Shown here piece after piece: positions 6,904-59,717 of a DNA stretch of 64,000 bases (position 1 is its first letter; each line of letters starts with the position of its first letter). Source of the DNA: a virus. A program made the position numbers and the translations under genes. The stretch is from IMG/VR virus record IMGVR_UViG_3300030329_002830, positions 10,964-74,963 of that record. The stretch is one strand, 5' to 3'. A model generated the notes under the pieces. The model did not search any database, had not been told where the DNA came from, and saw nothing but the letters and a program-made list of their open reading frames with translations.

Positions 6904-6979
6904 TGGGGTGTAGCGCAACTGGCAGCGCATCCGGTTGTTACCCGGAAGGTTGTTGGTTCGAGTCCAACCGCCCCAGCCA
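6904..6979 (+). tRNA. tRNA-Asn(GUU)
   Basis: 76-nt cloverleaf: acceptor TGGGGTG/CGCCCCA, D stem GCGC, anticodon arm TCCGG-TTGTTAC-CCGGA, T loop TTCGAGT, discriminator G73, encoded CCA. Confidence 0.95.
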
Positions 6980-7659: not shown

Positions 7660-7827
7660 ATGAAACTGCACTGGACCGCAGGAAGCGAAATGCAGCGCGA
7701 CCCTACTGGGTTCATCTTGTTTAGAACTTCATGCAGGCGATGGGTGACGCTAAATCGAACAACGGTTCCAACCGGGGTTACCTGCAAGCAATGCCGCCGA
7801 TATTTAGACAAGCTCATTGCAGGCTAA
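7660..7827 (+). CDS. Small His/Cys zinc-binding protein
   Basis: GGAGG RBS; H...C...VTCKQC. Confidence 0.55.
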   Translation: MKLHWTAGSEMQRDPTGFILFRTSCRRWVTLNRTTVPTGVTCKQCRRYLDKLIAG

Positions 7828-10909: not shown

Positions 10910-11101
10910 CTACTTCTTGCTCAGTGCAGACATGGCCTTCTCAGCCGAATCACCAGCAATATATGCAAGGCCAAGATAAAGCCACTGATCTGACTCAAGC
11001 ATGCCGGCAGCAAGAAGACCTGTGCCAAGAGCCAAGACGGCCAGCCGCCGCCAAGAGATTCGATGCTGAGAATCAAAAAGAGCCTTGAACATGTTCTTCA
11101 T
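10910..11101 (-). CDS. Small two-TM holin-like protein
   Basis: AGGAG RBS; ISWRRLAV, TM, DQW, TM, YIAG. Confidence 0.65.
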   Translation of the reverse strand: MKNMFKALFDSQHRISWRRLAVLALGTGLLAAGMLESDQWLYLGLAYIAGDSAEKAMSALSKK

Positions 11102-15502: not shown

Positions 15503-18500
15503 CTACTCGGGCTCTGACGGTTCATATTCTTTAAGTGCTCTCTCAAGAACATAGATTTGGTCTTTATACAGCTTAGCCTCGCGAGCGTATTCGTGTTCAA
15601 GTGGTTTTGGTCGTGCGCCCATCAGGCCATAGAACTCAAGAATGGAAAAGTCTGTGGGGTCATCTTCGTAAAGGTTTGGACGTGGAAGCATTGTGTCGCC
15701 TCTCCACCCTTCTCCGCCAACCATTCTGCGAGCAGTAGGCGCCTCAAGCCATCCAGCTTCCTCAAGAGGATGTCTCGCATGTTCCCTAAATAGCGCCGAA
15801 AGCTCTACTGCGGTTTCTACAGGTCCAAGGTTGGCTCTATCCATGGCAGAGATAGTATCCATAGAGCGACCGGCGCCTGGTATTTGCAGCAAGTTTCGCC
15901 ACATCCACCAATGTGTTCCGTTCGTAGCGACGTACCGACCACGGCCCGGTGCATCTTCGTATGCCTTGTTGTCTACGGGCTCCCACTTAACTTCCAAAAA
16001 CTCGTAGAGTTGTCCACCGAACATGTTTGCGTCCAGTTCAATCAGCCACGCTGGAACGACATTGTTTCGATTGATGTCGTACCCAAAGTAGAAGTCTTTC
16101 TCACCGGCAACAATAAACGGGGCCTGAACCCACGGTGTTGCCCGAGACACAAGACCCCTGAATGCGTCCTTTCCGCGCTGGCTTTCCTTAAATGCGGCAA
16201 CATCGTAAATGTCGGCCATGAGCCTGATCGCATCCTCAACAGGCAACATCGGCAACAAGAAGGCCGTGCCCTTTTGTCTGTGCTGATTGTGGTAGTTCCC
16301 AATGGACCCAGCAAAAAGACGTGTATCCATCCACTCTGGCAGCACAAGCAATGGGTCCTCTTCATCAAGAACCAACCGTTGCGACCCACGAATCAGGCGC
16401 ATTTGAGCAATAAGCCTTTGAGGGTTTCTCAGGAACGTGTCCCAGAACAAATCGATGTTCTTTCTCTGGTACGAATAGAACATGACGGTGTTGCGCATAA
16501 ACTTGCGCTCAAACTCAGTCAGGTCTGAGTAGTCGAATCCTGCCTTTCTCGCTATGTCTGCCGCAGCGGATGGAGACTTACCCATCGCCAACTCATCTAC
16601 AAAGATGCTTACTCTAAAGTAGTTATCAATGGCAGTGGCAGTCTCGATCATGTTCTGCTGCCACCATTTTGGGGATCGCCTAATAAAGCCAGCAAGCTTT
16701 GGCATCCGTTGTTCGATGTCTCTCGATATGGCCTGCGCTGTTTCAGCCTGAATGAAACTTGATTTCATTCCATGCCGAATCGCCAAGTGTCCAATCATGT
16801 CGTCGGTATAGACCTGGCCAAACCTCGTCACGATTGCGGGAGCGTGTGGCGTATATCCGCCCTCTTTCCACATTCGAGCAACCACAGCGCCAACCATGTC
16901 AGGCCGGCGACCAACCATTTTAAGGAAAGACCCAGGCATCTTTGCCAGATACTTCCCGGCAGCAAAGAACCCCTGCGTCTGGTACGCCTGGAACAGCGCA
17001 CCCAAACTGACACCCGCGTAGTAAGCCGGGTTTGGCAGGCCAAGGCCGGTAGTCACGCCCATCTTAATCCGTGATGCCGTGACCGGATTCAGGTCCATGA
17101 TTGTGTCGAACGCTTTGGCAAGGTGCAGTTGAGCGCGAACGGACTTGGTTTTTTCCGTTGGTGATTCAAGCGCAACATTGCCTCGTGCCGACTTAAGAAC
17201 ACGACCCTTGCCTGCCCATCCTGTCCAAGCCTGACCGACATTAGTTGCACGGGACACGGCATCTTCGATTTCTTTGATGAGCATGAGCGGCACCAGCGCC
17301 TCAGTGCCATCAGGCATCGTGTACCGTTGCCACTTGCCCTTACCAAGCTTGAACCCCCATCCAGCCAAAAGGTCATGCGCCTTTGTATAGGCCACCATGT
17401 CTTTTGTTCCAATACCCCAACGGCCAGGCCCAGCATCTTCTGGCAAGTCATGAAGGTTGAACATGTTGTTCGGTGGCGCAGGCGCAGGGTCGTACTTTGC
17501 TGGCGTTGTATCGGTCTTTCTGCGCAAAAATGCGTTTGAATCCCAACTCATTTCTTTGTTGATGTAAAACGCAACTCGGTCCACAAACTTGTCCCGGTCC
17601 AAAGACGTGCCAGGGCCAAACTTGCGGTGTTCGGTCATTTTTCTCGCATCAAGGGTGACGCCGTACTCTGCCAGATTCCTGGTCATCTTGCTTACAATCT
17701 CATTGGCCCGCATCCGTGCGACCATCTCAAGCATCGCCAGGCTCTGGTCATACTCTGGAATCGCTTCTGGGCTTGCGCCGATGTCACGGCCACGCAGCCC
17801 AGCCCAATCAAACAGAGACTCAAAGTCGCCGTTGTAGAACCAGTCGTAGACCATTCTGTATTCGATTTCAGCGCGCTCAATCAGCAAGTTTGCGTCTGAT
17901 GTTCCCTCAAGCGACATGATGATTTCTTTGGCACGAGAGACAACATCTTCTTTTCGCGTCCAAAGACCGTGATGAATCTCACGGATTCCATCACCGATGG
18001 CATACAAGTCGGCATCCGTCAGGGCTTCCGTTGGGGTGTCTTCGTAGGTGCGAAGAATGCGAAGTGCCGAGCGCTCATGATCCGTCAAGCCATTTGAATT
18101 CTGTAACAGGCCCTGAATGGCGTCCAGTTGGTCATTGATTTCCATTCTGGTAAGCTGCGCAACTTCATCGCCCGAAGCAATCTCACCGCGCTGCATGCGG
18201 CCAAGGCGCCTGGATTCAGCCTCAAGGACACCGCTAAGACGGTCTACAAGGCCAAAGAGTCGCGAAGTGTCGCCTACGTTTACTGGCGCCACAAGCTGAC
18301 CAATCATGCTCTTGTAGACTTCACGCCAAACCGTAGCATTGTCAGTCTTGATGGCGCGGTCAGCCATCTGTAGAAGCCATCGGTCAATCGTGTTGAGTTC
18401 TCGCAGGCTCTCCTGAACAACGCCACGCGGAACTGGATCGATGTAGTCATCACCGAACCCAGATGTCTTGAAGTTCTCAATGATCTTGTTTCTTATTGTC

Positions 18501-21500
18501 CGCACCTTGCCGCTTCTCTTTGCGGCAATCTTGGACATTGTGTTGACTGCGTTGACCATGGCGTGGCCAAGGGTCGGTGAGATGTTCTCTGCGTAGCGGG
18601 TAGCTCTGGCCGACACGCCAGCCTCAACATCAATCATGACCTCAAGGATTCGGTTGTATTGCTCAACACCCATAAGAGTAAAGTCAGCAGCACCGTCGAG
18701 CATGAAGTCAGGCATGATGTTGGACATTGGTTCGGCGCCAAGCTCATGAACCAGCGTCTTCATTCCGGCAGCCTGTGCTGGAGATAGCTCGATAATCGGC
18801 TGGTCGTACCGCATGGTAAACCCAGGCTGCGCACCGAGCCTCCGAGACACGTCCTCCGGCAAAGACTCATTGGCATTGTATGTCTTGAGGTTCTTCGGGT
18901 GGTCTCCCAGGGCGGCAGCAATGCGATGCTTTACAGAGCGCTCAATGCGCTTCATCCGTGACCTCGGAATGAATGTGCGCTTCGTCAAGCGAACCCACTC
19001 ATCACCAATAAGGCCACGCTTAAAGTGCTCTGTAGCCACGTATGCGATGGCATTGTTGACTACCTCAACAACATCAACTTCTGCACTGACGGGACGCCGC
19101 CGTGGAGCCCACTCATGTACGTCTGGGTTCGCGCTGATGTCTTCAAAGTACACCTCAGACTTACCGCCAAGAGCTTGCCTCACACTTTCTGGCCGCAGGT
19201 CAACCCGCGCAGCTTCACGCGCACGACCAGCCTTCTTAACGGCCTCTGCTTCAATTCTTGCCGCGCGAGCCGGGTCAACAACAACCGTGGGATGGCGCTT
19301 CTTCATCACCTGGGCCTGAGTCGTTGACGCATACTGCCGGACTTGTTGATCTGGGCGCAACCACCGATCCCAAAGGTCTTTCATTTCCCTTGGGATGGCT
19401 GGATCTTGACCGCGAAGTCGCCGCCATATCTCTTTAATGGACCAAAGAAGCTGCTCAAACAGCCGCTTGACGGGGCCGGAGGGCGAGAACTTCGACTGCA
19501 TGTAGTGCATCCATGCATCAGCAAGTTGCTCCTCACCAAAGTCCGTCAGCCTGTATGTTCCATCCGGCATGACCTCGTGTTCAAAATGGCGAACAAGCTT
19601 GTTCATCCACTTGTTGCCCATGATGGCAGACACAAGGTGGCCGGACTCATGCCAAAGCGTGTTGATGTCGCCATTGCGGAACAGGGCAACGACGTACTTG
19701 GCGGCTACGGGATCCCACTCAAAATATCCGAGAGCCTCGCCCTCACCCATCATGTAGCGGACTCGCGGGTCAGCCGGGTCGAACGTGCCACGGTTGAACT
19801 TGGACTTGATCTGAGTGGGCTCGAAGACCATGTAGTGGTACGTCCCAGGCTTTACGCCCTCCATACCACGCCGCGTTACGCCAAACTGCTTTCTTGGGCC
19901 GAAGTGATAGTGGGCATCCGCAACGATACCGTCGAATCCCATGCGCTCAAAGACAACACGCATGAACTCCGCGTTTGCGGTGTTTCCAGTGTCTGGATCA
20001 TCAATGAACCAGTCGCCCTCGCGAATACGATCCATCAAAGTGGTTGCGTCAATCTCACCATCCGCCAAGTCATCAAACAATGACTCCTTGAACCGAGCAA
20101 CCTCATCTACGGCGTCAAACTCGGAAGCAACCTCGTCTATTGTTTCGAACAACCGAATGGCGGAGCCTTTTTCATCAACAATGTCGCCAACATCGTCATA
20201 CACATACTCCAACTCGAAGACGGTACGGCCCTTCTTGCCTGACGGGTCGAGGTACACCGGATTTTCCATCTTCAGATAGACGGGCAATACGCTGAACTGC
20301 TGATCGCCTAACGCTGCCTGACGAGCCATTTGCTCAATAATGTCAGACTCATACGCATCAATAAGTCCGTCAGCGTCTTCGGCATCGATAAGACGCCGCA
20401 ACTCTGGCGTCTGCTTTAGTCGACGCGCGGCATCCAAAATGTCAACTTCGTCAAAGTCAGCAAGAGACTCAATCCGATCAATCTCTCGATCAACCCGACT
20501 TTTGATGTCGGGGCCTTCAATCCTTGCGTAGTTTCGATTTACATCAACAACATCATCGCTAAAGTAAATTGACGAGCCAAACGCACCCTCAATATTGCCC
20601 CGCTCAAACGCATCGAAATCCCGTGACGTGCCATGGTAAACAACCAGCGGCTCACCAGCGTCATCGACCACCATGGACCCACCAAACCACCGCCGAAAAG
20701 CCGGGGTCTCGGAAACAGGGGTGACGGGTTCCTCTACCTGTCTTGCAGCAGCCTTTTGACCAAACGAAATTGCTGGCGGGTCGCCATCAAACTTCAGTCG
20801 CTCTCTGGGGAAATCGACAACCCCGAAATCTCTGCGGGCACGCGCTTTAAGGAGTAGAGCTTCTTCAAGAGTAGCTCGCCGTCCAACGTCTGCGATGAGT
20901 CGGTCGAGGGCGACTCTGTCAACACCGGGTCTTGTGAACCAGGGGATTCCGGCAGAGGCGGGGTCTGAGATTTTGAAGCCACGAGGAACAATCCTGTTTT
21001 CTATGTTCTTGTTTTTTGTGTGCTTGTCGAGAACATCATAGTACGCACGCACCGCAGACTGGTCAAGAATGTAGGGGCGACCAGCAGAGTCCTCAAGAAT
21101 GTAGACTCTGCGGCCATCATCCAACGGAACATAGTGCATCCCGTATCGACGCATCGCAAACTTGCCTTCACGGACATAGACGCCGCGTGCTGGCTCACGA
21201 ACATTTAAGGCTTCTCTAAGAAGGATCGAAAGCGTGTTGTGGCCAACCTCTTGACCGCTACTCGCTACCCAGCTTTCCCAGTGAAAACGACCAATAGAAC
21301 CAGCACCCTCGCGACCAACAGCCCGATACGCAGAATCCATGTTGGCAAGAATTGCTTCCTCAATGACTTCATACAAGGCCAGGCCGCGTGCGCCATTTAG
21401 AACCTCTGCCATTCCGCGCTTTGTCGAGATTGGGTGAGGGTTTTTTGCCCAGCGTTGCCACGCCTCTGCTGTTGTCTTCTTGGCAAAGCTTTCGTAGATG

Positions 21501-24500
21501 TCTCTCATTCCGCCATAGTTTCTTGTGGCGCTATCCCAAAAGTGATTCGCTTGAACCCGGTCAATGACCGTGACATCGGTACGACCGGCCACAAGAAGCA
21601 GAAACGATAGGATCTTGTTGTCGACACCAGACTTTTCAACCAAAGAAAAGTAGTTTCGCCTGATCTGCTTCGATGGCATGGACTGATCCAAGATCATGTC
21701 ATGCAGCACCTGAAGCGGAATCTGGCCCGCATTCGGGTGGTCGCTTGGGAGCGGCTTGCTCATCTTAAACAAGAACTGCTTGCCAAAAGAGTTCAGATTG
21801 GCCAGAGCGCCACCACCCGGACCATCAGGGTTGATCACAGGCTTTTGGGCCCTCATGACCTTAGCTTCATCTTTGGTGATTTCACCCGCACTCAACAGAC
21901 GCTTGATTGCATCGGGCTTTTCACTCTTGCTGCCAACCCAAACCAAAAACCTATCAAGCTCAGGACTGCCCTTTGGATACCCATCTGCGGCCTTCGCAAA
22001 ATCACCCCTCGCCGCAGACCGAATGTATGGCTTGACGTTCGCCAAGAATGCATCAATAAAGGCCGCCTCATGCGGGTACGACGAAAGAGACCGGCTCAAG
22101 ATTGACCAAAGCAACAACTGGCCCGTCAGGACTACGTCGGCCTGGCCCGCCTTGTACAAACCACCAATCTGAGACGTAAGCTCAACACCGAAGTTGGCCT
22201 CCTCAATCTGGCCAGGAGTCAGCCTCTTGAGCAACGACACCATGGAGTTTGGGTCTGTAAGGTATTCCCGCGCCTTCCAAGGCGGCTGAAGCACCTGCTT
22301 GTTGCCAGTTACAGCGGACCAAAACTTGTTCCATAGCCGGTCATTTTCAATCGGGTTGACATCGCCAAGCCCGGCACGAATTTCATCAATACGCTCAAAT
22401 GATGCCTTTGCATTTCGAGGTGACGTTCCATACGGAACTGGCCGCTCAAGGTTGGCGTCACTTACGCGAGTCGTGCGAGTAAGCGCAGATGGTACACCAG
22501 AACCTCTTGGCGAGATGTCCGTGTACCTCTCTATTAGCTCATTAATCCTTTCCTGCGGAATCTTCGGAACATCTTTAGTCTTGCCTTTGGCGAACTCTTT
22601 ATTCATGTACCCATTAAGGGTCTCTGCAAGAACCTGTACCCTTTGGGATGCGCTGATTTCATCCACAGAGGTCTTTCCAGTCATCTCCGCAAGACGCTTC
22701 TTGAAGAAAGCATCCTTGTCTGGGTTGATTCGAAGATCACCAAGAACACCACGCAGGTCCTCCAAAGACACCGCGCGAGTAACGCCGGAGCCCTGCACGC
22801 CAAGCGGGTAGCCCTTTAGGTTCTTTGCGGGCTGGCCCTGAACGCTGACGACAATCTCCAGGTCATCAAGAGAGCCAAGCATCCAGACATCATCAGCCCG
22901 GACTGGAACCTCAACCATAACCAAGTTCTTTTGGCTTCTGCGGGTGTGGTGACGCTTAAGCGCATGAGACCCCTCTGGGGTCAGAGAAACGCTAACAGGG
23001 CCAGACACACGGCCATTTCTCCATGCTTTAAGCATGGTTTTCGACATCAAAGCATAGCCATTGAATGTTTCGCCAAGGCGCTCCTTAAGCACAGAAGACA
23101 AAGCCTGTCGATATTCGCCAAACCCATCATGCTGGGCGGCGTCTTTTGCAATCTTCTGCCCGCGAGAAGCCCGATTGGTCTTAGTGTATTCAGCTTCAAT
23201 CGGGCGAAGCTTGTCGGGAACATCGACGCGAGCCAAGTCACTCATCGTGTCCAATGTAGACTTGTATGGTGCAGGGTTCAGGTCTGGGATCTCATCGGAA
23301 AGCTGAAATCTTGCGAACTGTCCCGGCGTTCCATCACGTTGAACTCGAATGACATTGTCGAAGAACTCATTAACGGAGGCAATCGGAACGTCTGGATCAG
23401 ACGCCATCCTGGCCGCAAGTGTTTCAAAGACGGCTTTAATCATGGGATTTGCACGAGCATCCCACCGACCATCCTGCGCAAACTCATCCAGCGTCCTGGA
23501 GAAGTCTTGATACCCCTGACCCTGCCTCATTGCCCGGTCGGTTGGCGCATTTCCGCTGGCAGCCATGTCACGAGCGCGCGTGAAAACATCCCGACCCTGA
23601 CGCACAGTGTCAGCATAAACACCAAGAGCTTCTTCAGGCTCAATCCCGTAAACACGTAGCGCTTCGCTTACTTGGTCTTTTGTGTTTGATGGAAGAATAT
23701 CAAGGGGACTTTTGCCCTGTGCTACTGCTGAATCAGCGGCTGCCTTGTAGAAGTGATTGGCAGCCGTGACTGCATCAGCATCTTCAAGCCCATATCGGTG
23801 CTTGTAGGCCCACGGAGACATCCCCGCCAGGAAACCTTGCGGGCCAATTCCAGCCTTTTGGCCAGCCTTGGCAAGTCGAACGGCCTGCATTGGCTGAACA
23901 ACGCCTGTCCGAACCATCCTGCCAGCAGTCTTCAAGAATGGAGTTTCCCACGGCGTTCCAAAATCAGCAAGAATTGAAAGGTAATTTCCCGCAACATACC
24001 CTTCATCATCCGTGGACATCCCCTGTGTCTTCATGATGTCCGTGATGCGAGGCTGAACACCGACCTCTCCAGTCCCGATTCTGGCCAGCGCAATAGCGGC
24101 AACACCCATCGGGCTGTCGGGCGCACGCAAGAGACCTTCGGTATCACCGATAAGCCCCGCATAAGCCTCCATCGGGGCCAAGTATACTTCCGGCGCGGCG
24201 CCACCCAGCCAGCGGAACCACTTTGAGCCAGTTGACTCTACAACGTACAGGTTGCCCTCATGCTCCTCCACGTCCATCATTGTGCGCTGAATCCAATGCT
24301 GCAAGGTCCGCATCTGGTCGCCACCGCTGGCATCAACGGCTTTAAGCTTTCTTTCAGCCCACTCTTCAAGCTCTGGCATGGTCGGAATCGCGCCATTGAC
24401 GGACGCATACATCCCAGGAACCATCGCAAAAGACCCAATGGCCAACTTGTTTAGCTCCTCCCTGACCGTATTGTTCGACTTCCCCTCTTTGGCCATTCGA

Positions 24501-26005
24501 ATGGCTTTGGCCATGCCGGGTGAACTGCGCTCGATTTGGAGAACCTCAATGTCGCTCTCAGACATAGAGGTCGCGACTTTCTTAAACTCAAATACATTCA
24601 ACTTGCCGCGAGCAAGACCCTGGCTCTCCAGGTCATTGTATGTGGTCGTGTCGAGCAACATCACAAAAGCAGACCGAAGCTCTTTTTCCTTCTTGGGGTT
24701 CGCCTTTATCTGCTTTGAAATCTCGTACATTGCGCGCAAGTTTTCAGGGATCTTTGCGTCCTGAATGTACTGCTCACGCTCCTGAAAGACTTCAGGCTCG
24801 TCGTCAATGGTTGCCGCAAGCGCTTTTCCAGCACCTATTGGACCAGCAACGAGATGACCCGCCAAAACGCCAGCGGCGTGGTCGGGCGTAACTGCTTCAC
24901 GATACTCATCTGAAAGGGCGGCCCGGCCAACACGTACAGCCGCATCCTCAAGCGCAAACCGCAGCCCCTCAGTTAGTCCAGCCGATGTAAAGTCAATGAT
25001 TCTCTCTGGAACACTGGTTCCACGAGTACCAGCCAACTCGGCGCGCTCTATTTCGTCGGCTCTCTCTTCAAACGCTTGCCTCGCTTCTTGAACGTATTGA
25101 TCTGGGTCCTCGACACCCAACCGCTCAGCGGCACCGACAGCAGCATCAAGCGCAATAGCGCCCATCCAACCACCGAGCTTTTCAAAAAACATCGACGCTT
25201 CTGGAACGCTGGCGTAGTGCGCAGTGCGCCTGGCAACACCATCAATGAATCGACCATCGGTTTGCATTTCAAGAGACGCAAGAGAGCCAACACCAGCGCC
25301 AATCATCGCACCCGTATATCCGCCAACCTTAGCACCAAGCGCAAGCCCGGCAGCCGGCAAGATGTACCCCTCACCGTACTTTCCACCAATTGATGGACCC
25401 TTCTCCTCGCCCTCCGGGGTCCACATCTCATTAAGTGGATCGACTTCCTCAAGGGGAACTCTCCGGTCAGGAAGAAGCTCCTCATGGGCAACCTCCAAAG
25501 CCAGCTTCCAACCCTCAAGGTAGTCACCCTTTTCGGCGTTCTCTTCAAGAATCCCCTCGATCTTGTCCGCTTTGTTTTGCAGCCCAGCAATGCGCTGCGC
25601 TGTGCCGGTCAGCGTCGGCCTGGAACCAATGGACTTGGTTCTGGTGGTCATAGCCCCGATGCCGCGCGGCCTTGGTACACCGATATACCTCAAGTCCTCT
25701 ACCAACTCCTGAACCTTTTTCTTTCTCTCTTCCTCATCCATGTTTTCATGCTGTTCGGCATAGTAGAGTTCTGCTTGCTCTTCCAAGACAAGCAGAAGAC
25801 CCTCAGATAGAGCCGGGTCGGGCTCCAATACGGGAGGAGCGGTTCGAGTTTCCTCGAAGTCGGGCGGCTCAAGGTCTTCGAAGACTATCGGCTCATCTAC
25901 TGGCCCAGTAGTCGGAACAATGTCTTGGGCGTCTGCTTTTAGATCTGCAAGAATGTCGTCTTCAAAAGAAATCGGCGCATTGGTATCATCTGAACGTGAA
26001 GGCAC
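15503..26005 (-). CDS. 3500-aa large polyvalent (ejected internal virion) protein
   Basis: ART-PolyVal-like domain (FRRWFG..VVYHGT..VYLKMENP..GFDGI..VFEPTQIKS..GTFD), zincin HESGH, HhH-GPD-like segment, LPD38-like C-terminus (AGFDYSDLTEFER..MFY). Confidence 0.85.
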   Translation of the reverse strand: MPSRSDDTNAPISFEDDILADLKADAQDIVPTTGPVDEPIVFEDLEPPDFEETRTAPPVLEPDPALSEGLLLVLEEQAELYYAEQHENMDEEERKKKVQELVEDLRYIGVPRPRGIGAMTTRTKSIGSRPTLTGTAQRIAGLQNKADKIEGILEENAEKGDYLEGWKLALEVAHEELLPDRRVPLEEVDPLNEMWTPEGEEKGPSIGGKYGEGYILPAAGLALGAKVGGYTGAMIGAGVGSLASLEMQTDGRFIDGVARRTAHYASVPEASMFFEKLGGWMGAIALDAAVGAAERLGVEDPDQYVQEARQAFEERADEIERAELAGTRGTSVPERIIDFTSAGLTEGLRFALEDAAVRVGRAALSDEYREAVTPDHAAGVLAGHLVAGPIGAGKALAATIDDEPEVFQEREQYIQDAKIPENLRAMYEISKQIKANPKKEKELRSAFVMLLDTTTYNDLESQGLARGKLNVFEFKKVATSMSESDIEVLQIERSSPGMAKAIRMAKEGKSNNTVREELNKLAIGSFAMVPGMYASVNGAIPTMPELEEWAERKLKAVDASGGDQMRTLQHWIQRTMMDVEEHEGNLYVVESTGSKWFRWLGGAAPEVYLAPMEAYAGLIGDTEGLLRAPDSPMGVAAIALARIGTGEVGVQPRITDIMKTQGMSTDDEGYVAGNYLSILADFGTPWETPFLKTAGRMVRTGVVQPMQAVRLAKAGQKAGIGPQGFLAGMSPWAYKHRYGLEDADAVTAANHFYKAAADSAVAQGKSPLDILPSNTKDQVSEALRVYGIEPEEALGVYADTVRQGRDVFTRARDMAASGNAPTDRAMRQGQGYQDFSRTLDEFAQDGRWDARANPMIKAVFETLAARMASDPDVPIASVNEFFDNVIRVQRDGTPGQFARFQLSDEIPDLNPAPYKSTLDTMSDLARVDVPDKLRPIEAEYTKTNRASRGQKIAKDAAQHDGFGEYRQALSSVLKERLGETFNGYALMSKTMLKAWRNGRVSGPVSVSLTPEGSHALKRHHTRRSQKNLVMVEVPVRADDVWMLGSLDDLEIVVSVQGQPAKNLKGYPLGVQGSGVTRAVSLEDLRGVLGDLRINPDKDAFFKKRLAEMTGKTSVDEISASQRVQVLAETLNGYMNKEFAKGKTKDVPKIPQERINELIERYTDISPRGSGVPSALTRTTRVSDANLERPVPYGTSPRNAKASFERIDEIRAGLGDVNPIENDRLWNKFWSAVTGNKQVLQPPWKAREYLTDPNSMVSLLKRLTPGQIEEANFGVELTSQIGGLYKAGQADVVLTGQLLLWSILSRSLSSYPHEAAFIDAFLANVKPYIRSAARGDFAKAADGYPKGSPELDRFLVWVGSKSEKPDAIKRLLSAGEITKDEAKVMRAQKPVINPDGPGGGALANLNSFGKQFLFKMSKPLPSDHPNAGQIPLQVLHDMILDQSMPSKQIRRNYFSLVEKSGVDNKILSFLLLVAGRTDVTVIDRVQANHFWDSATRNYGGMRDIYESFAKKTTAEAWQRWAKNPHPISTKRGMAEVLNGARGLALYEVIEEAILANMDSAYRAVGREGAGSIGRFHWESWVASSGQEVGHNTLSILLREALNVREPARGVYVREGKFAMRRYGMHYVPLDDGRRVYILEDSAGRPYILDQSAVRAYYDVLDKHTKNKNIENRIVPRGFKISDPASAGIPWFTRPGVDRVALDRLIADVGRRATLEEALLLKARARRDFGVVDFPRERLKFDGDPPAISFGQKAAARQVEEPVTPVSETPAFRRWFGGSMVVDDAGEPLVVYHGTSRDFDAFERGNIEGAFGSSIYFSDDVVDVNRNYARIEGPDIKSRVDREIDRIESLADFDEVDILDAARRLKQTPELRRLIDAEDADGLIDAYESDIIEQMARQAALGDQQFSVLPVYLKMENPVYLDPSGKKGRTVFELEYVYDDVGDIVDEKGSAIRLFETIDEVASEFDAVDEVARFKESLFDDLADGEIDATTLMDRIREGDWFIDDPDTGNTANAEFMRVVFERMGFDGIVADAHYHFGPRKQFGVTRRGMEGVKPGTYHYMVFEPTQIKSKFNRGTFDPADPRVRYMMGEGEALGYFEWDPVAAKYVVALFRNGDINTLWHESGHLVSAIMGNKWMNKLVRHFEHEVMPDGTYRLTDFGEEQLADAWMHYMQSKFSPSGPVKRLFEQLLWSIKEIWRRLRGQDPAIPREMKDLWDRWLRPDQQVRQYASTTQAQVMKKRHPTVVVDPARAARIEAEAVKKAGRAREAARVDLRPESVRQALGGKSEVYFEDISANPDVHEWAPRRRPVSAEVDVVEVVNNAIAYVATEHFKRGLIGDEWVRLTKRTFIPRSRMKRIERSVKHRIAAALGDHPKNLKTYNANESLPEDVSRRLGAQPGFTMRYDQPIIELSPAQAAGMKTLVHELGAEPMSNIMPDFMLDGAADFTLMGVEQYNRILEVMIDVEAGVSARATRYAENISPTLGHAMVNAVNTMSKIAAKRSGKVRTIRNKIIENFKTSGFGDDYIDPVPRGVVQESLRELNTIDRWLLQMADRAIKTDNATVWREVYKSMIGQLVAPVNVGDTSRLFGLVDRLSGVLEAESRRLGRMQRGEIASGDEVAQLTRMEINDQLDAIQGLLQNSNGLTDHERSALRILRTYEDTPTEALTDADLYAIGDGIREIHHGLWTRKEDVVSRAKEIIMSLEGTSDANLLIERAEIEYRMVYDWFYNGDFESLFDWAGLRGRDIGASPEAIPEYDQSLAMLEMVARMRANEIVSKMTRNLAEYGVTLDARKMTEHRKFGPGTSLDRDKFVDRVAFYINKEMSWDSNAFLRRKTDTTPAKYDPAPAPPNNMFNLHDLPEDAGPGRWGIGTKDMVAYTKAHDLLAGWGFKLGKGKWQRYTMPDGTEALVPLMLIKEIEDAVSRATNVGQAWTGWAGKGRVLKSARGNVALESPTEKTKSVRAQLHLAKAFDTIMDLNPVTASRIKMGVTTGLGLPNPAYYAGVSLGALFQAYQTQGFFAAGKYLAKMPGSFLKMVGRRPDMVGAVVARMWKEGGYTPHAPAIVTRFGQVYTDDMIGHLAIRHGMKSSFIQAETAQAISRDIEQRMPKLAGFIRRSPKWWQQNMIETATAIDNYFRVSIFVDELAMGKSPSAAADIARKAGFDYSDLTEFERKFMRNTVMFYSYQRKNIDLFWDTFLRNPQRLIAQMRLIRGSQRLVLDEEDPLLVLPEWMDTRLFAGSIGNYHNQHRQKGTAFLLPMLPVEDAIRLMADIYDVAAFKESQRGKDAFRGLVSRATPWVQAPFIVAGEKDFYFGYDINRNNVVPAWLIELDANMFGGQLYEFLEVKWEPVDNKAYEDAPGRGRYVATNGTHWWMWRNLLQIPGAGRSMDTISAMDRANLGPVETAVELSALFREHARHPLEEAGWLEAPTARRMVGGEGWRGDTMLPRPNLYEDDPTDFSILEFYGLMGARPKPLEHEYAREAKLYKDQIYVLERALKEYEPSEPE

Positions 26006-55263: not shown

Positions 55264-55566
55264 GATTCAACTGCGGCGCCCCAAAAGACTGGCCTACAAC
55301 GCTGTATTCCGGCATTCTAAGCCCGTAACCTGCCGAGACTGCTGAACCCTCTACATCTCTATCTCTACTATTATCTATTGGCTTAACGGGGGGGGCTTTT
55401 CAGATTTTTTTTTTGGCGGGCCTCATCGACCCCCTCTCGGCCCCCACCTGGCCTCCGGCCAGCCCCAGCACCCCCATCCCGCCCCCCGAAGGGGGGAGGG
55501 GTCTCCGTTTCCAGCCCAGAGGGCTGAGGGTGGAGTGGGTCCGGCCTGGACCTCTGGTCCACCCCG

Positions 55567-56016
55567 TCACATGGTCCACCTCCGGTGGAGGGGGGTCGCC
55601 TCGCGATCCGCCTGGTTCCCGCGCTGGGCGAGGGCTGCGACCTGGTCGACCTGGTCGGCCTGGCTGGCACCGGGCACCGTGCCCAGGGCAGTGGCCACCA
55701 CCACCGCAGCAGCAGCAGCCACCCGGCGGCCCCACCGGCTGAAGCCGGAGGCCACGCGGGACACGCGCGCGCGGAGAGGAGAAGCCTCAGCCACCACCAC
55801 CAGGGCGGGGGCATCGGCCACCACCACCACCGGGGAGGGGGCGGGGGTCTCGACCTGAGCCACGGGGGCCGGGGTCAGGACCACCACCGCCGGAGCACCG
55901 GGGAGGCGGAGAGCAGCAGCGCGGGACCAGGCCACGAACCGTCCGGTGCGAACACACCGGGCCCGCTGCCGGGGGTCGGCTGCGGTGCGGTTCGAGAAGG
56001 CAAGGACTGCGTGCAT
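55567..56016 (-). CDS. Possible Ala/Val/Pro-rich membrane protein
   Basis: RCVRTGRFV motif, APxVVV repeats and a hydrophobic segment; GC-rich, so it may be spurious. Confidence 0.4.
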   Translation of the reverse strand: MHAVLAFSNRTAADPRQRARCVRTGRFVAWSRAAALRLPGAPAVVVLTPAPVAQVETPAPSPVVVVADAPALVVVAEASPLRARVSRVASGFSRWGRRVAAAAAVVVATALGTVPGASQADQVDQVAALAQRGNQADREATPLHRRWTM

Positions 56017-56146
56017 GCGAAGAACTTGTGCACCGATGGCATGGCGGCAACCCCTCTTGCCTAACTTTCTGCCCAACAAACAAAATGAAAATCTTTTCCT
56101 TAATGATTCCGCACACTTACAGACTTTCTTCACTTTATTTTGCTAT

Positions 56147-56752
56147 GGGGGGGTTGCCGCTGGGCAGCCAGTGTCCAGATTCTCATCGTCGGCGGCACCG
56201 AGCCCCGACCCGCTCTCTGGAATCGCGATTGCGACCCATCGACACCGGGGGAACCCCCGGGAGGCGAAACGCCTGGCAGCGTTCGGGGCAACCCCGAGAA
56301 CACCAGGCAGAGTAGTCAGCCCGAAACGGTCGAGGTGGGATGAAGGACATGGATAGCAACCCACAGCAGGGTACGACAGCGAGGCGATGACCCCCTATAC
56401 AGGGGCGAGCCGAGCCCACTTGAGCCACGCAGCCGTAGTGCACGACCATTCCGCGAGCCCCATGGGGCCGCAAGCGATGGACCCGGAGCACGCAGGTGTG
56501 CCGCAGACGGTGGACGGTACCTGAGCCACGGACCTATCCATGACACTGCTCTGGTGACAGAGTGGGGGGCTTGCCCCCTGCGCCAGAGGAACGGCCCGGC
56601 TCTCCGATGTACTGAGTCATCTGTGGTCCATAGTTTCCCGGTGGACTTGAATAGACGGGAAGGCAGGCCACCCACCTCCTCATGGTGGGCCCCCCTGATG
56701 CCATGGCGTCAGGGGGATGAACACCCCCCCAGCGGGGGGGGCACGATTGGTC
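56147..56752 (+). ncRNA. Candidate large structured ncRNA (~600 nt)
   Basis: No credible ORF; many hairpins; k-turn 56383-56411; long-range helices 56332-39/56671-78 and 56348-56/56534-42. Confidence 0.6.
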
Positions 56753-56824
56753 GGGGCGTGATGCTCGCCCCCTGATGACCGCGCAAGCGGTGGCAGTAGC
56801 CAGGCCCAGCAGGGCCGAAACCAA
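56747..56824 (+). ncRNA. Type III hammerhead ribozyme variant (predicted cut after C56752)
   Basis: UUGGUC, stem I, CUGAUGA, two extra hairpins, stem II, GAAACCAA; loop I UGCU is complementary to loop II AGCA. Confidence 0.75.
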
Positions 56825-56835
56825 CAGGAGTCAGC

Positions 56836-56997
56836 ATGACCCGCAAGCACTTCAAACTCATCGCCCAAACCATCGCCCTCATCACCAACCCGGTCGCCCG
56901 GCGGGAAGCCGCCCGCGACTGGTGTGGCACGCTCCGCCAGACCAACCCACGATTCGACTCAAAGCGGTTCCTCGCTGCGTGCGGGGTGGCAGTATGA
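56836..56997 (+). CDS. 53-aa early phage protein (MTRKHF...NPRFD..RF..ACG family; not in the ORF track)
   Basis: AGGAG RBS; motif I recall from small phage proteins. Confidence 0.75.
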   Translation: MTRKHFKLIAQTIALITNPVARREAARDWCGTLRQTNPRFDSKRFLAACGVAV

Positions 56998-57314
56998 GCG
57001 CCAAGCGATTCATCACAGACCTCCAGGCCCTGGTCCGCAAGTTCCGCGAGGAGTCCATCGAACTCTGCGGACCCAAGTACGCATCGTTCTCCGACACCGT
57101 CGTGTGGGACACGGCCAAGAGTGAGAGCCTCGGCTACGGCAAGTGCGTGGCCCTCGTCTTCGATGGCGGGGGGTACGACGAACTCTCCAGCCAGGGGATG
57201 CTCGCTGACATGGGCAGCGAGACCTACCGAAATCAGGTCTTCGCCCTTGCCAAAAAGCACAACATGCACGCCGAGGACTACGCCAGCTACCTCATCACCT
57301 TCCACGCCAACTAA
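56994..57314 (+). CDS. Hypothetical early protein
   Basis: ATGA overlap with the previous gene; GC3-rich codons. Confidence 0.7.
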   Translation: MSAKRFITDLQALVRKFREESIELCGPKYASFSDTVVWDTAKSESLGYGKCVALVFDGGGYDELSSQGMLADMGSETYRNQVFALAKKHNMHAEDYASYLITFHAN

Positions 57315-57834
57315 CCGCCCCGGGGGAGCGTATCCCCCGCCGCAACCCGTCAGATCGTATGGCCCCCGGCGTGCAAACCCAGGCGGCCCTGCCTTGTTCC
57401 CCTTGCGCGGAACTGCACAGGCGATCTAACGGGGGGGCCGGGGGCTTTCCCCCGGTCCCATCTCCGAACATAGCCTCCGGCTGGGTTCCCCCTGTGTACA
57501 GGGAGGGGTTGAGCCCAGCCGTTGAGGCGAGTCTACCCCGGCTGCCCCGCAGCATATCATCAACCCTCACCGCTCCCCCGTTGTGCCGGTTCCCCCTGGG
57601 GTATCGGCCAGCGGGTGGGGCAAAGGCAGCCCCATCGAGGTCAGGCACCGCCGGATTCGGCCCAGCCCATGACCCACAGGCAGCCCCGAACTACCGATTC
57701 TGAGTCGCGCATATCCCGCCTTGCCCCTGGCATATCGCCAGATGCGGCATCCCCTGAGAACGGGGCGAGCGAGGGGCGCGGCGTCAAGAGAACCTTACCT
57801 CAACGTCAAGAAACCTTTACACCTGGAGTCCACC

Positions 57835-57930
57835 ATGGGAACCCTTCAAGACCGATACGACAACTATGTGCGATGCATGATTGACCTTGGCCAGCCGTAT
57901 GTTGACTTTGACACCTGGCTGAACCGCTAA
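57835..57930 (+). CDS. 31-aa protein
   Basis: GGAG RBS; MGTLQDRYDNY...FDTWLNR. Confidence 0.6.
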   Translation: MGTLQDRYDNYVRCMIDLGQPYVDFDTWLNR

Positions 57931-57944
57931 CCCTGGAGCCCACC

Positions 57945-58166
57945 ATGTATGAGTTCATCACCAACGACCCCGCCGATGGCAAGCAGCTTTGGCGGGTGAC
58001 CGAGTGCAAGACCTGCGAGGGTCGCGGCCGAATCTGGTACCCAGGTTGCGGCGACAGTGCAGCCACCTGCCAGGAGTGCGATGGCGCTGGCGAGGTTGGC
58101 AAGTATCGCAAGATCGACTTCAGAACCGGCAAGCCCTATGGCCCGTGGCGGTCTGACTGCCACTGA
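57945..58166 (+). CDS. DnaJ-type CxxCxGxG zinc-finger small protein
   Basis: CKTCEGRG and CQECDGAG; GGAG RBS. Confidence 0.7.
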   Translation: MYEFITNDPADGKQLWRVTECKTCEGRGRIWYPGCGDSAATCQECDGAGEVGKYRKIDFRTGKPYGPWRSDCH

Positions 58167-58181
58167 CCCTTGACAAGTAAA

Positions 58182-58454
58182 GGGACAGGGGGCCACCGTG
58201 TCCCCCTTGTGGGACACTGAATATCACAGGGTCAACCGGCAATATCCTGGGTGTCCCTACCTGTCCCCCTTGTTTCTGAAAAGAAACCTGACCCTACCTG
58301 GGCCCTCTCGCGCCCCCCTCCCTCTCTATTACTACCCCCCCCTACTTTCTTAGAGTAGGTAGGGACAGATAGGACAGAGTCCAACTATCCAGGTTGAACC
58401 GTACCTATTTACAGTCCCCCTGACCTGACCTAACCGTTGTCACGTCAAGGGACT
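58182..58454. repeat. GGGACA/TGTCCC repeat cluster (putative origin or operator array)
   Basis: About nine exact or near copies in both orientations in non-coding DNA. Confidence 0.6.
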
Positions 58455-58513
58455 GGGGGCCACTTTCATGCCGAAGCGGACACATTATGACCGCCTTTGG
58501 CCTTGTACCTGAC

Positions 58514-58542
58514 TTGACCATCCACCTGCCCGTAACTAAATG
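58514..58542 (+). promoter_or_regulatory. Probable early promoter TTGACC-17-TAAATG
   Basis: Lies upstream of the CAACAACAGGAG leader. Confidence 0.5.
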
Positions 58543-58567
58543 TAGGGCAGCAACAACAGGAGTTCCC

Positions 58568-58699
58568 ATGAGCACGACCACCTTCAACGCTTTCCGACGC
58601 CGTGGCTACCGAGTCGTGAACCTGCGCCGCTGCACCCCGGCTGCCCAGGGTAGCCGCCCGGTTCAGATGCTCGCCCGAATCACTCCCCTCTCCCGATAA
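58568..58699 (+). CDS. 43-aa basic protein
   Basis: AGGAG RBS. Confidence 0.5.
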   Translation: MSTTTFNAFRRRGYRVVNLRRCTPAAQGSRPVQMLARITPLSR

Positions 58700-58769
58700 C
58701 TGTACGCCCTTGCTGCAAGGGTAGAGCAGCGCGAAAGCTAAACCATCTCAACAACAACAGGAGCCCATC

Positions 58770-59717
58770 ATGGCTAAGAAGAAGTTCGACCCGTACCAAG
58801 TGATCACCGACTCCATCATCGACGCGCTGGAGGCTGGCACCCAGCCCTGGCGTGCTCAGTGGAAGGGGCTTGGTGGTTCCACCCTGCGCCCCCTCAGCGG
58901 TGCGACCGGCAACCCCTACAAGGGCATCAACGTCCTGCTGTGCTGGGCTACCGCCCACTCGATGGGCTACTGGTCCAACCAGTGGCACACCTACAAGGGA
59001 GCCCAAGGCAAGGGCGGCCAGGTCCGCAAGGGCGAGAAGTCCACGCGCATCGTCAAGTGGCTGTTCTTCCCTAAGAAGGACGAGCGAGGCCAGCCGGTCA
59101 TCGGTCGGGACGGCCAGCCCGTTACCATCCCGTACCCCAAGCTGTACTCCGTGTTCAATGCCTGCCAGATTGAATGGGAAGAGGGCAGCGAGTACGCGCC
59201 TGGTCCCGAGCCCACCGTCGAGGACCACGATGGCTCCGAGGCTGGCGACAACCACAGCAAGGCCAAGGACGTGCTCGACGCATGGACCGAGGTGGTGCCC
59301 GTCGGGCATGGCGGCAACCGTGCGTACTACTCACCCACTGAGGACCGCATCCAACTCCCCCGCTTCGAGCAGTTCGAGGACGAGGCATCCTACTTCAGTG
59401 TGGCGTTCCACGAGGCTGGACACAGCACCGGGCACGAGTCTCGCCTTGACCGGGACTTCAGCAAGTCCAAGCGGTTCGGTGACCAGGCGTATGCCTTCGA
59501 GGAGTTGGTCGCTGAGTTGGCCGCCGCCTTCCTCTGCGCTGACTGCGGCATCAGCCAGCCCGCCGAGCCGAGAGCGGACCACGCCAGCTACCTGGCCTCA
59601 TGGCTCAAGGTACTCAAGGGTGACAAGAGGGCCATCATCAAGGCCGCATCCGATGCGGAGAAGGCTGCCAAGCTCATCCTTGAGAACGCCGACGTGGCCG
59701 AGATGGCCGCCAAGTAA
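58770..59717 (+). CDS. ardC: ArdC-family antirestriction protein (ssDNA-binding + zincin)
   Basis: PWRAQW, YKGINVL, GGQVRKGEKS, VFN, AYYSPTEDRIQLP, FHEAGHSTGH, YAFEELVAEL, HASYLASWLKVL. Confidence 0.93.
   Translation: MAKKKFDPYQVITDSIIDALEAGTQPWRAQWKGLGGSTLRPLSGATGNPYKGINVLLCWATAHSMGYWSNQWHTYKGAQGKGGQVRKGEKSTRIVKWLFFPKKDERGQPVIGRDGQPVTIPYPKLYSVFNACQIEWEEGSEYAPGPEPTVEDHDGSEAGDNHSKAKDVLDAWTEVVPVGHGGNRAYYSPTEDRIQLPRFEQFEDEASYFSVAFHEAGHSTGHESRLDRDFSKSKRFGDQAYAFEELVAELAAAFLCADCGISQPAEPRADHASYLASWLKVLKGDKRAIIKAASDAEKAAKLILENADVAEMAAK

Follow-up and report, generated by a model that had tools for sequence, protein, structure and literature searches.

We analyzed a 64,000-nucleotide (nt) stretch of viral DNA, hereafter the window, which spans positions 10,964 to 74,963 of IMG/VR record IMGVR_UViG_3300030329_002830 and makes up the right-hand 64 kb of a viral contig of 74,963 bases that CheckV rates as complete. 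Judging from sequence comparison, window positions 56147–56752, with a conserved core beginning at ~56205, are a real gene for a new family of large, multidomain structured phage RNAs whose 3′ end appears to be defined by a ribozyme. We refer to this element as the leader; it makes up the first 600 nt of a rightward operon that carries a gene for the anti-restriction protein ArdC. It belongs to no catalogued family, and since a hammerhead site is located at its 3′ end, it is probably set free as a separate RNA. A first-pass annotation, made from the sequence of the window, had proposed a possibly new large phage RNA at this place. The proposal is supported in part: the fold is conserved, no Rfam family matches it, a hammerhead follows it in all seven members collected, and it heads the ArdC operon. 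One of the two long-range helices proposed at that stage was wrong. The motifs listed in that annotation were all found where it had placed them, and their fates are given below with the helices concerned.

The region is noncoding. Guanine-plus-cytosine content (GC) at the three codon phases is flat over 56101–56850 (0.58 to 0.70), whereas the phases of neighboring genes differ widely (0.80 to 0.88 versus 0.40 to 0.50). Relatives that are ~96% identical carry 1-, 2-, and 3-nt insertions or deletions within the region that break the frame, and the five longest mechanical open reading frames (ORFs) of 56147–56752 have no Pfam match. The earlier statement that there is no credible gene here is thus confirmed. 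When the whole window was scanned with Rfam 15 at gathering thresholds, the sole match was a transfer RNA (tRNA) at 6904. The leader fell below the gathering threshold for every family in this release, including GOLLD, ROOL, ribonuclease (RNase) P, transfer-messenger RNA (tmRNA), 6S, riboswitches, and group I/II introns, which agrees with the first reading that RNase P, tmRNA, and intron signatures are missing. A permissive scan of 55900–57000 gave one match of note, Hammerhead_3, and the remainder, among them weak matches to Scr4115, DUF3085 RNA, and small nucleolar RNAs, were at chance level. The same scan of the six homologous loci described below returned hammerhead matches only. A strong Rfam hit had been named in advance as what would remove the novelty; the only family match is a subthreshold hammerhead. 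A comparison with dinucleotide-shuffled controls, proposed at the same time, showed that the folding energy of the plus strand is modestly better than that of the controls (z −2.28, with 0 of 70 shuffles as low), whereas that of the minus strand is not (z −1.13, 9 of 70 as low).

Similarity searches with the region gave no match among phage records or among plasmids in PLSDB. Relatives were reached through relatives of ArdC, which pointed to a 74.6-kb syntenic phage (L004), among others; further leaders were recovered from viral and marine metagenome contigs, including TARA, by pattern searches for the hammerhead and for the most conserved motif. Removal of identical copies left seven distinct members, which fall into about five lineages: the window, L085, L080, L050, L078, L079, and L038. 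The collection of homologues that the first-pass annotation had called for therefore yielded six further distinct sequences, from marine metagenomes and viral contigs. Two of them, L085 and L080, are 96.5 and 83% identical to the window. A covariance model of domain 2 (see below) scored all seven members at 132 to 218 bits and the rest of 54 loci at ≤19 bits. Several candidates were rejected: seven genome-contig matches (L091 to L097) were due to chance, scoring ≤19 bits with the domain 2 model or not matching it, as were 26 loci matching a 17-nt k-turn pattern in viral contigs, while the matches to a domain 3 motif pattern (L098) and to a relaxed k-turn pattern (L100) lay in coding DNA and were likewise due to chance. 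A search for relatives of a 106–amino acid downstream protein found none in viral contigs, and a profile search with a conserved 347–amino acid neighbor protein gave no contig beyond one already known. In all members, the element has a conserved leftward gene on one side and, on the other, a first rightward gene that varies; the downstream genes differ among members, and the leader and ribozyme are retained.

The leaders consist of conserved cores with variable peripheral elements. L050 and L078 contain large insertions, and subregions 56417–56507 and 56530–56622 are wholly replaced in some metagenome variants. Between the window and its 96.5%-identical relative, differences are found mostly in loops. 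The structure was derived by alignment, RNAalifold, and pair counting with shuffled controls and with controls in which partners were slid along the alignment; counts of pairs changed on both sides and the slid-partner controls are more robust than the shuffles.

Domain 2 is closed by helix CAUGGAUAG/CUAUCCAUG, which spans 190 nt. Both partners have changed in six of its nine pairs, and pairing holds in 95% of cells; the helix reads CAUAGUAAG/CUUACUAUG in L079 and CACAGGUGG/CCCCCUGUG in L038. The helix nested within it (56366–74/56517–26) also has 95% of cells paired, with one pair changed from A-U to G-C in three sequences and a G·U pair in five. For the domain as a whole, 93.9% of cells are paired compared to 86.5% in shuffles, and 10 of 33 pairs are changed on both sides compared to 5.1 in shuffles (0 of 500). 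Sliding the partners by one to three columns reduced pairing to 25 to 43% of cells in domain 2 and to 25 to 57% across the tested helices. The first-pass annotation had placed two long-range helices in the leader. While CAUGGAUAG/CUAUCCAUG is borne out, GAGGUGGG/CCCACCUC (56332–39/56671–78) was rejected as a conserved pairing: 39 of 56 cells pair, and its 3′ arm is part of a covarying hairpin, CCCACC/GGUGGG, instead.

An invariant arm of domain 2, which begins with a tandem G·A internal loop, carries the k-turn that had been noticed at 56383–56411. In a sequence-pattern test, this segment matches the Kt-7 arrangement of a canonical (C) stem, a 3-nt bulge, tandem sheared G·A/A·G pairs, and a noncanonical (NC) stem. 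The seven sequences are identical at the bulge, at both G·A pairs, and at the two adjoining C-stem pairs, and the terminal loop varies (UAUACA, UAUAUAUA, CCCC). At position 56383, the window alone has G; the other six members have A, so that their outermost C-stem pair is A·C in place of G56383-C56411 and the C stem is short. The motif and its core hold throughout the family, and the outermost pair does not. No L7Ae-family gene (PF01248) is present in the phage record.

Each of the seven leaders contains two CCAUGG-capped hairpins, 217 to 285 nt apart. The stem of the upstream one, hairpin A, differs by lineage (GCCCC/GGGGC, CUCCC/GGGAG, or CCCACC/GGUGGG). Unpaired motifs, i.e., the k-turn, the two CCAUGG apices, and AAUAGAC, are invariant amid changing stems.

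In domain 3, an H-type pseudoknot is formed by two crossing stems, both of which have compensatory changes. Five of 13 pairs are changed on both sides (two in stem X and three in stem Y), 95.5% of cells are paired, and the covariation score is 0.39 compared to 0.18 in shuffles (0 of 500). L038 keeps the layout with other letters (CGGGUG/CACCCG and UUCUCCG/CGGAGAG), and a T56631>C variant converts a U·G pair of stem X to C-G. The UUCCCG/CGGGAA hairpin of the first-pass annotation is therefore supported by covariation, as one of the pseudoknot stems. Upstream, separate folds of the S1 region in five lineages gave one topology built from unrelated sequences (CUCAGU/ACUGAG, UCCACGUC/GACGUGGA, CCCCCGC/GCGGGGG). 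The hairpin GGGGG-CUUG-CCCCC within it is retained or has another hairpin in its place. A CUCUG-GUGA-CAGAG hairpin had also been listed here; it was rejected as a conserved pairing, since it competes with the enclosing helix CUCUGG/CCAGAG, which is the conserved one and keeps its topology in every lineage. Toward the 3′ end, there are several compensatory changes in the first two hairpins (56671–89 and 56691–56716), and covariation bears out the CCCCCUGAUGCC-AU-GGCGUCAGGGGG hairpin. The C-run/G-run hairpin has G-run length variants in metagenomes. Together, the 3′ hairpins and the hammerhead have 9 pairs changed on both sides compared to 5.6 in shuffles (6 of 500).

In domain 1, metagenome variants contain three compensatory double changes, C56284>T with G56296>A, G56287>A with C56293>T, and T56274>C with A56305>G, which substantiate the previously noted GCCUGG/CCAGGC and UCGGGG/CCCCGA helices. 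The CCGGGG/CCCCGG hairpin is present in most members, with another hairpin in its place in L038. The helices that enclose the domain are tentative. A candidate pairing, GCUCUCUG/CAGAG-UAGU, would be broken by two changes in a metagenome variant, A56309>C and G56310>A.

The element is a plus-strand RNA. The 190-nt-range helix and the pseudoknot need a single strand, and several features specify which one. In the raw RNAalifold structure, there are 116 G·U cells versus 43 A·C cells; single changes lead to G·U on the plus strand (e.g., C56245>T) or from U·G to C-G (the T56631>C variant above). The ribozyme and the downstream genes are both on the plus strand, and the folding energy points the same way.

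A type III hammerhead is located directly downstream of the leader in seven of seven members. All have the core, i.e., the GUC triplet, C3-A9 CUGANGA, G12-A14 GAA, and three stems with stem III open; the sole core change, CUGACGA in L080, is at the free position N7. Stem I covaries from G-C to A-U in L080, and stem II reads GACCU/AGGUC in a metagenome variant. A Shine-Dalgarno sequence and AUG are located 12 to 25 nt past the ribozyme in all seven members, before unrelated first genes, and no intrinsic terminator-like site was found on the plus strand of 56147–56835. Hammerhead cleavage is likely for the family. The phage genome contains a single hammerhead. The syntenic phage L004 has a second one (7731–7789, 32.9 bits) between two coding genes downstream of ArdC, without a large leader, and its stem I is identical to that of the window. 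The features of the leader and its flanks are listed in the following table.

Features of the leader and its immediate flanks (window coordinates)
Feature	Position	Strand	Basis or remark
AT-rich divergent control region	56060–56146	.	Between leftward gene (start codon 56016) and leader; direct reading
5′ hairpin UUGCCGC.../...GCGGCA, optional	56152–56199	+	RNAalifold on A3; absent or different in L038 and L080
Domain 1; tentative closure CGACC 56206–10/GGUCG 56328–32	56206–56332	+	RNAalifold, natural variants
Domain 1 hairpins	56224–33; 56245–60; 56271–76/56303–08 around 56283–88/56292–97	+	Compensatory variants in 56271–76/56303–08 and 56283–88/56292–97
Domain 2; 9-bp helix CAUGGAUAG 56348–56/CUAUCCAUG 56534–42	56348–56542	+	Covariation
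Nested helix GC-GGGUAC 56366–74/GUACCU-GC 56517–26	56366–56526	+	Covariation
Tandem-GA internal loop and Kt-7–like k-turn hairpin, GC-GA-GGC-GAU-GA-CCCCC loop GGGG-C-GA-GCC-GA-GC	56379–56415	+	Direct reading
Hairpin A, CCAUGG apex (CCATGG at 56460)	56453–56471	+	In all seven leaders, stems differ
Helix S1, CUCUGG 56551–56/CCAGAG 56583–88, around A-rich bulge and hairpin GGGGG-CUUG-CCCCC 56565–78	56549–56590	+	Separate folds
H-type pseudoknot; stem X GUCCAU 56626–31/GUGGAC 56641–46; stem Y UUUCCCG 56634–40/CGGGAAG 56656–62; loop 56647–55	56626–56662	+	Covariation
Hairpin CCCACC/GGUGGG	56671–56689	+	Covaries: CCCAGC/GCUGGG, CCGCG/CGCGG, GUCGC/GCGAC
Hairpin B, CCAUGG apex (CCATGG at 56701)	56691–56716	+	Stems covary, apex invariant in 7/7
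C-run/G-run hairpin	56724–56741	+	Longer in relatives (CCCCCGCCGCC-AGUGCA-GGUAGGCGGGG)
Type III hammerhead	56747–56826	+	Stem III UUGGU/ACCAA; predicted cut after C56752
Hammerhead parts	Stem I 56753–58/56766–71; CUGAUGA 56772–78; insert 56779–56802; stem II 56803–07/56812–16; GAAA 56817–20	+	Rfam alignment, direct reading
Shine-Dalgarno AGGAG 56826–30 and AUG 56836–38 of first early ORF	56826–56838	+	Direct reading

The genome is that of a marine phage. Terminase, virion genes, RusA, and a 3,500–amino acid polyvalent protein with an ADP-ribosyltransferase domain are encoded on the minus strand, and primase and helicase genes are on the plus strand. The domain of the 3,500–amino acid protein (window 15506–26005, minus strand) matches ART-PolyVal with E 8e-14, which identifies a polyvalent protein and not an N4-type virion RNA polymerase. 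At window position ~55,300, GC steps from 53 to 63% and stays high up to the contig end. The resulting high-GC module (leader, small ORFs, ArdC, and a 506–amino acid protein) is seen again in other marine viral contigs with reshuffled gene order. Two divergent units flank the AT-rich stretch at 56,060–56,146, at the edge of which TGCTAT (56141–56146) is a possible −10 box; the block TGCTAT...GGTTGCCG is found again in L004 and in relatives. The leftward gene (55570–56016, minus strand) encodes a low-complexity product rich in Ala, Pro, and Val that has no Pfam or PHROG match and whose conservation in relatives is confined to the first ~45 residues (45 to 60% identity). The rightward unit contains two small ORFs (56836–56997 and 56994–57314), a zinc-finger ORF, ArdC (58770–59714; PHROG 7245, E 1e-86), and further genes. 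The zinc-finger ORF (57945–58163) has a weak match to the DnaJ-type CxxCxGxG zinc finger (E 3e-4, under the Pfam threshold).

Other noncoding sequence is found nearby. Window 57315–57835, 3′ of the two small ORFs, is a second conserved stretch without codon periodicity; its folding energy compared to shuffles is z −4.84 (0 of 100), and 57537–57778 is 87% identical to L050 474–715. The hairpins 57305–57344 and 57464–57530 are adjacent in relatives, where they are located behind different genes, and the window adds 119 nt (57345–57463) between them. A third noncoding block, 58166–58562, lies between the zinc-finger ORF and a 70–amino acid ORF, is 81% identical to L003 1271–1667, and has no Rfam match. 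The syntenic phage L004 has a leader of its own, 590 nt long (folding z −2.30) and ending in a hammerhead, which can be aligned with the window only over ~50 nt plus the ribozyme and does not match the domain 2 model. Upstream of its leader, the L004 control region (1700–2060) contains three copies, one of them inverted, of a motif, AACGCTGTACG, with one more copy in L038 (10616–10626); it looks like a repressor operator and is not enriched in the window.

The layout suggests how the leader may work. Transcription would proceed rightward from the divergent control region, starting near 56147–56205 (in L038, the start seems to be later), and the leader would be the first product of the early ArdC operon. 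A hammerhead cut after C56752 would free an RNA of ~550 to 600 nt with a 2′,3′-cyclic phosphate end and would leave an mRNA with a 5′-OH end, capped by the ribozyme's own hairpins. With such a cut between them, the big fold and the ribosome-binding site would not interfere with each other, and the need for separation from the message is the strongest reason to think that the fold serves a purpose in its own right. The freed RNA would then be the functional product; it would require no translation and could exert its effect in trans during the first minutes of infection. Most likely, it would be a compact particle with a host or phage factor as its binding partner, and it may self-associate via the two palindromic CCAUGG loops. 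Overall, we give an even chance to the reading that the leader is released, is made first from the early operon, and acts in trans. That it is an RNA-only early effector, freed by the ribozyme within seconds, joined through CCAUGG into dimers or assemblies as in OLE, ROOL, and GOLLD, and neutralizing a host defense or capturing a host factor before any phage protein appears, strikes us as rather improbable. The decoy, scaffold, or anti-defense role suggested in the first-pass annotation is pure inference; for anti-defense, it is drawn solely from the neighbors (ArdC and the polyvalent protein) and from the leader being made first.

A number of observations weigh against the proposal of a ribozyme-released RNA of a new family. 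Its transcript, early expression, and ends are predictions from the sequence; among public sequencing runs, no RNA run is listed as containing the leader. A scan of 55300–58900 with promoter consensus sequences found no promoter-like site, so that the transcription start site is inferred from the shared block TGCTAT...GGTTGCCG. With z −2.3, the folding energy signal is modest and on its own weak evidence, and it is the comparative evidence that carries the case. The power of covariation statistics is in turn limited because only seven sequences in about five lineages, some of them closely related, are available, and a shuffle control can be beaten by unstructured related sequences. The hammerhead matches Rfam RF00008 (Hammerhead_3) at 56745–56826 with 22.9 bits (E 0.04), and the relatives score 27.1 to 33.0 bits; the window and all six relatives miss the threshold of 48.5 bits. 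Between A9 and stem II, a single extra U is present in relatives; in the window, this place is taken by 24 nt that form two hairpins, CCGC-GCAA-GCGG and UGGC-AGUA-GCCA, at the A9/G10.1 junction; none of the other six members has them. This insert must be recent since the 96.5%-identical L085 lacks it, and it could inactivate or regulate the ribozyme. Cleavage is therefore uncertain in the window copy, which may not cut; the earlier claim that the hammerhead makes the 3′ end fits with the core that adjoins the leader in every member and is qualified by the insert. Last, no feature of the leader points to a particular target, and its promoter-proximal position suits a cis-acting role just as well.

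Such a role is the main competitor to release and action in trans, although we consider it a minority possibility. The leader would control the early operon while attached to it or bound to RNA polymerase, possibly by processive antitermination like the HK022 put RNA, by shielding 600 untranslated nt from Rho, or by a signal-sensing tuning of the hammerhead that sets the stability or translation of the first mRNA. The position right behind the presumed early promoter and ahead of the first gene, kept in seven of seven members and in a divergent form in the syntenic L004, fits this well, as do the near-continuous structure with little unstructured RNA, the extra hairpins inside the window ribozyme, such as an allosteric design might have, and the conserved hairpins 57305–57344 and 57464–57530 behind the first genes. 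The ribozyme, however, is placed to cut the fold off the message, and once severed, the fold could have no further cis effect on translation. Moreover, put RNAs are ~70 nt long, and nothing of such size accounts for a fold of 550 nt that combines a k-turn and a pseudoknot with paired palindromic loops; downstream, no U-tract terminators that would need readthrough were found, and no riboswitch family in Rfam matches.

Two further rival explanations can be weighed. A fast-evolving functionless spacer, with hairpins that come from GC-rich sequence and conservation that comes from recent common descent, could explain why the energy z is only −2.3, why the family is small and partly closely related, why the whole subregions 56417–56507 and 56530–56622 are swapped among variants, and why the L004 leader is unalignable save for ~50 nt and the ribozyme. 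It would not lead one to expect compensatory changes that cluster in helices and pairing that collapses to 25 to 57% when partners are slid, unpaired motifs (k-turn, CCAUGG apices, and AAUAGAC) that remain invariant while the surrounding stems change, or differences from the 96.5% relative that fall mainly in loops; we regard a spacer as very unlikely. The chances of an element that acts as DNA, i.e., a replication origin, a packaging site, or a Frpo-type single-strand promoter, are slimmer than slight. ArdC and other genes of the plasmid-leading-region type downstream, the foreign GC of the module (63% versus 53%), and the location in the central divergent control region would suit it. A Frpo-type promoter is one long imperfect hairpin with −35 and −10 boxes in its stem, and on conjugative plasmids, it is found ahead of anti-restriction genes of the leading region. 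Here, no −35/−10 pair was found within a long hairpin, the promoter scan of 55300–58900 was empty, the fold has multiple domains with a pseudoknot, and there is no similarity to plasmids in PLSDB, so the Frpo-type promoter was rejected. For DNA-level action in general, covariation maintains a 190-nt-range helix and a pseudoknot that are impossible in double-stranded DNA, every member has a plus-strand ribozyme joined to the element, and G·U wobble pairs occur on the plus strand only, a strand-specific pattern that largely refutes this reading.

Large structured RNAs known from phages are few, and none is known to have a function. Among promoter-proximal structured RNAs that head phage early operons, the HK022 put RNAs are ~70 nt long, consist of two stem-loops, and act tethered to the transcript; the leader resembles them in position but is eight times larger, and a self-cleaving site comes after it. 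The nearest functional layout is that of T7, where RNase III site R0.3 is located in a long untranslated early leader before gene 0.3 (ocr, anti-restriction) and the processed mRNA end is structured. Both phages thus have an untranslated leader that is cut off, or would be, just before the first cistron. In T7, host RNase III makes the cut, whereas here it would be autocatalytic; and while the T7 leader is not known to be a conserved folded RNA, the leader described here is the most conserved part of its module.

The nearest kind of molecule is represented by GOLLD and ROOL, which are likewise ~600 nt in size, phage-borne, and multidomain with pseudoknots. The leader has no sequence or covariance-model similarity to them. 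They usually reside near tRNA genes, whereas the leader is 49 kb from the only tRNA in the window (6904–6976), between a divergent promoter region and early ORFs; unlike them, it heads an early operon and would have its 3′ end set by a ribozyme. GOLLD and ROOL assemble through palindromic kissing loops, and in OLE and GOLLD, the kissing contacts that such loops form from one chain to another are symmetric (Kretsch et al., bioRxiv 10.1101/2024.12.08.627333). A possible parallel to the OLE and GOLLD loops is seen in the two invariant CCAUGG apices of the leader.

Type III hammerheads of phages and prophages (RF00008) were described by Perreault et al. (2011, PMC3088659), who reported hammerheads flanking a prophage ardA gene and an early transcript of HF2 that has its 5′ end at such a ribozyme. 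The ribozyme of the leader family is similar in its core (GUC, CUGANGA, GAAA, stem III open) and in its position before early or anti-restriction genes. The window copy differs by its 24-nt two-hairpin insert and scores under the Rfam threshold. The published reports deal with the ribozyme by itself, whereas here the ribozyme forms the 3′ end of a conserved ~550-nt structured RNA. What is new is the hammerhead as the tail of a large conserved RNA and not its occurrence before phage early or anti-restriction genes, which had already been reported (PMC3088659). The leader would give phage hammerheads a concrete job, that of parting a folded RNA from the message that follows. It is experimentally tractable: its place (as first product of the early operon) and its 3′ end (the predicted hammerhead site) are defined, and its motifs (the k-turn, the pseudoknot, and two palindromic loops) can be tested. 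If modules of this kind prove to occur in other phages as well, ribozyme-released leader RNAs would be a recurrent feature of phage early gene expression that has not been described before and candidates for an RNA layer in the arms race between phages and their hosts.

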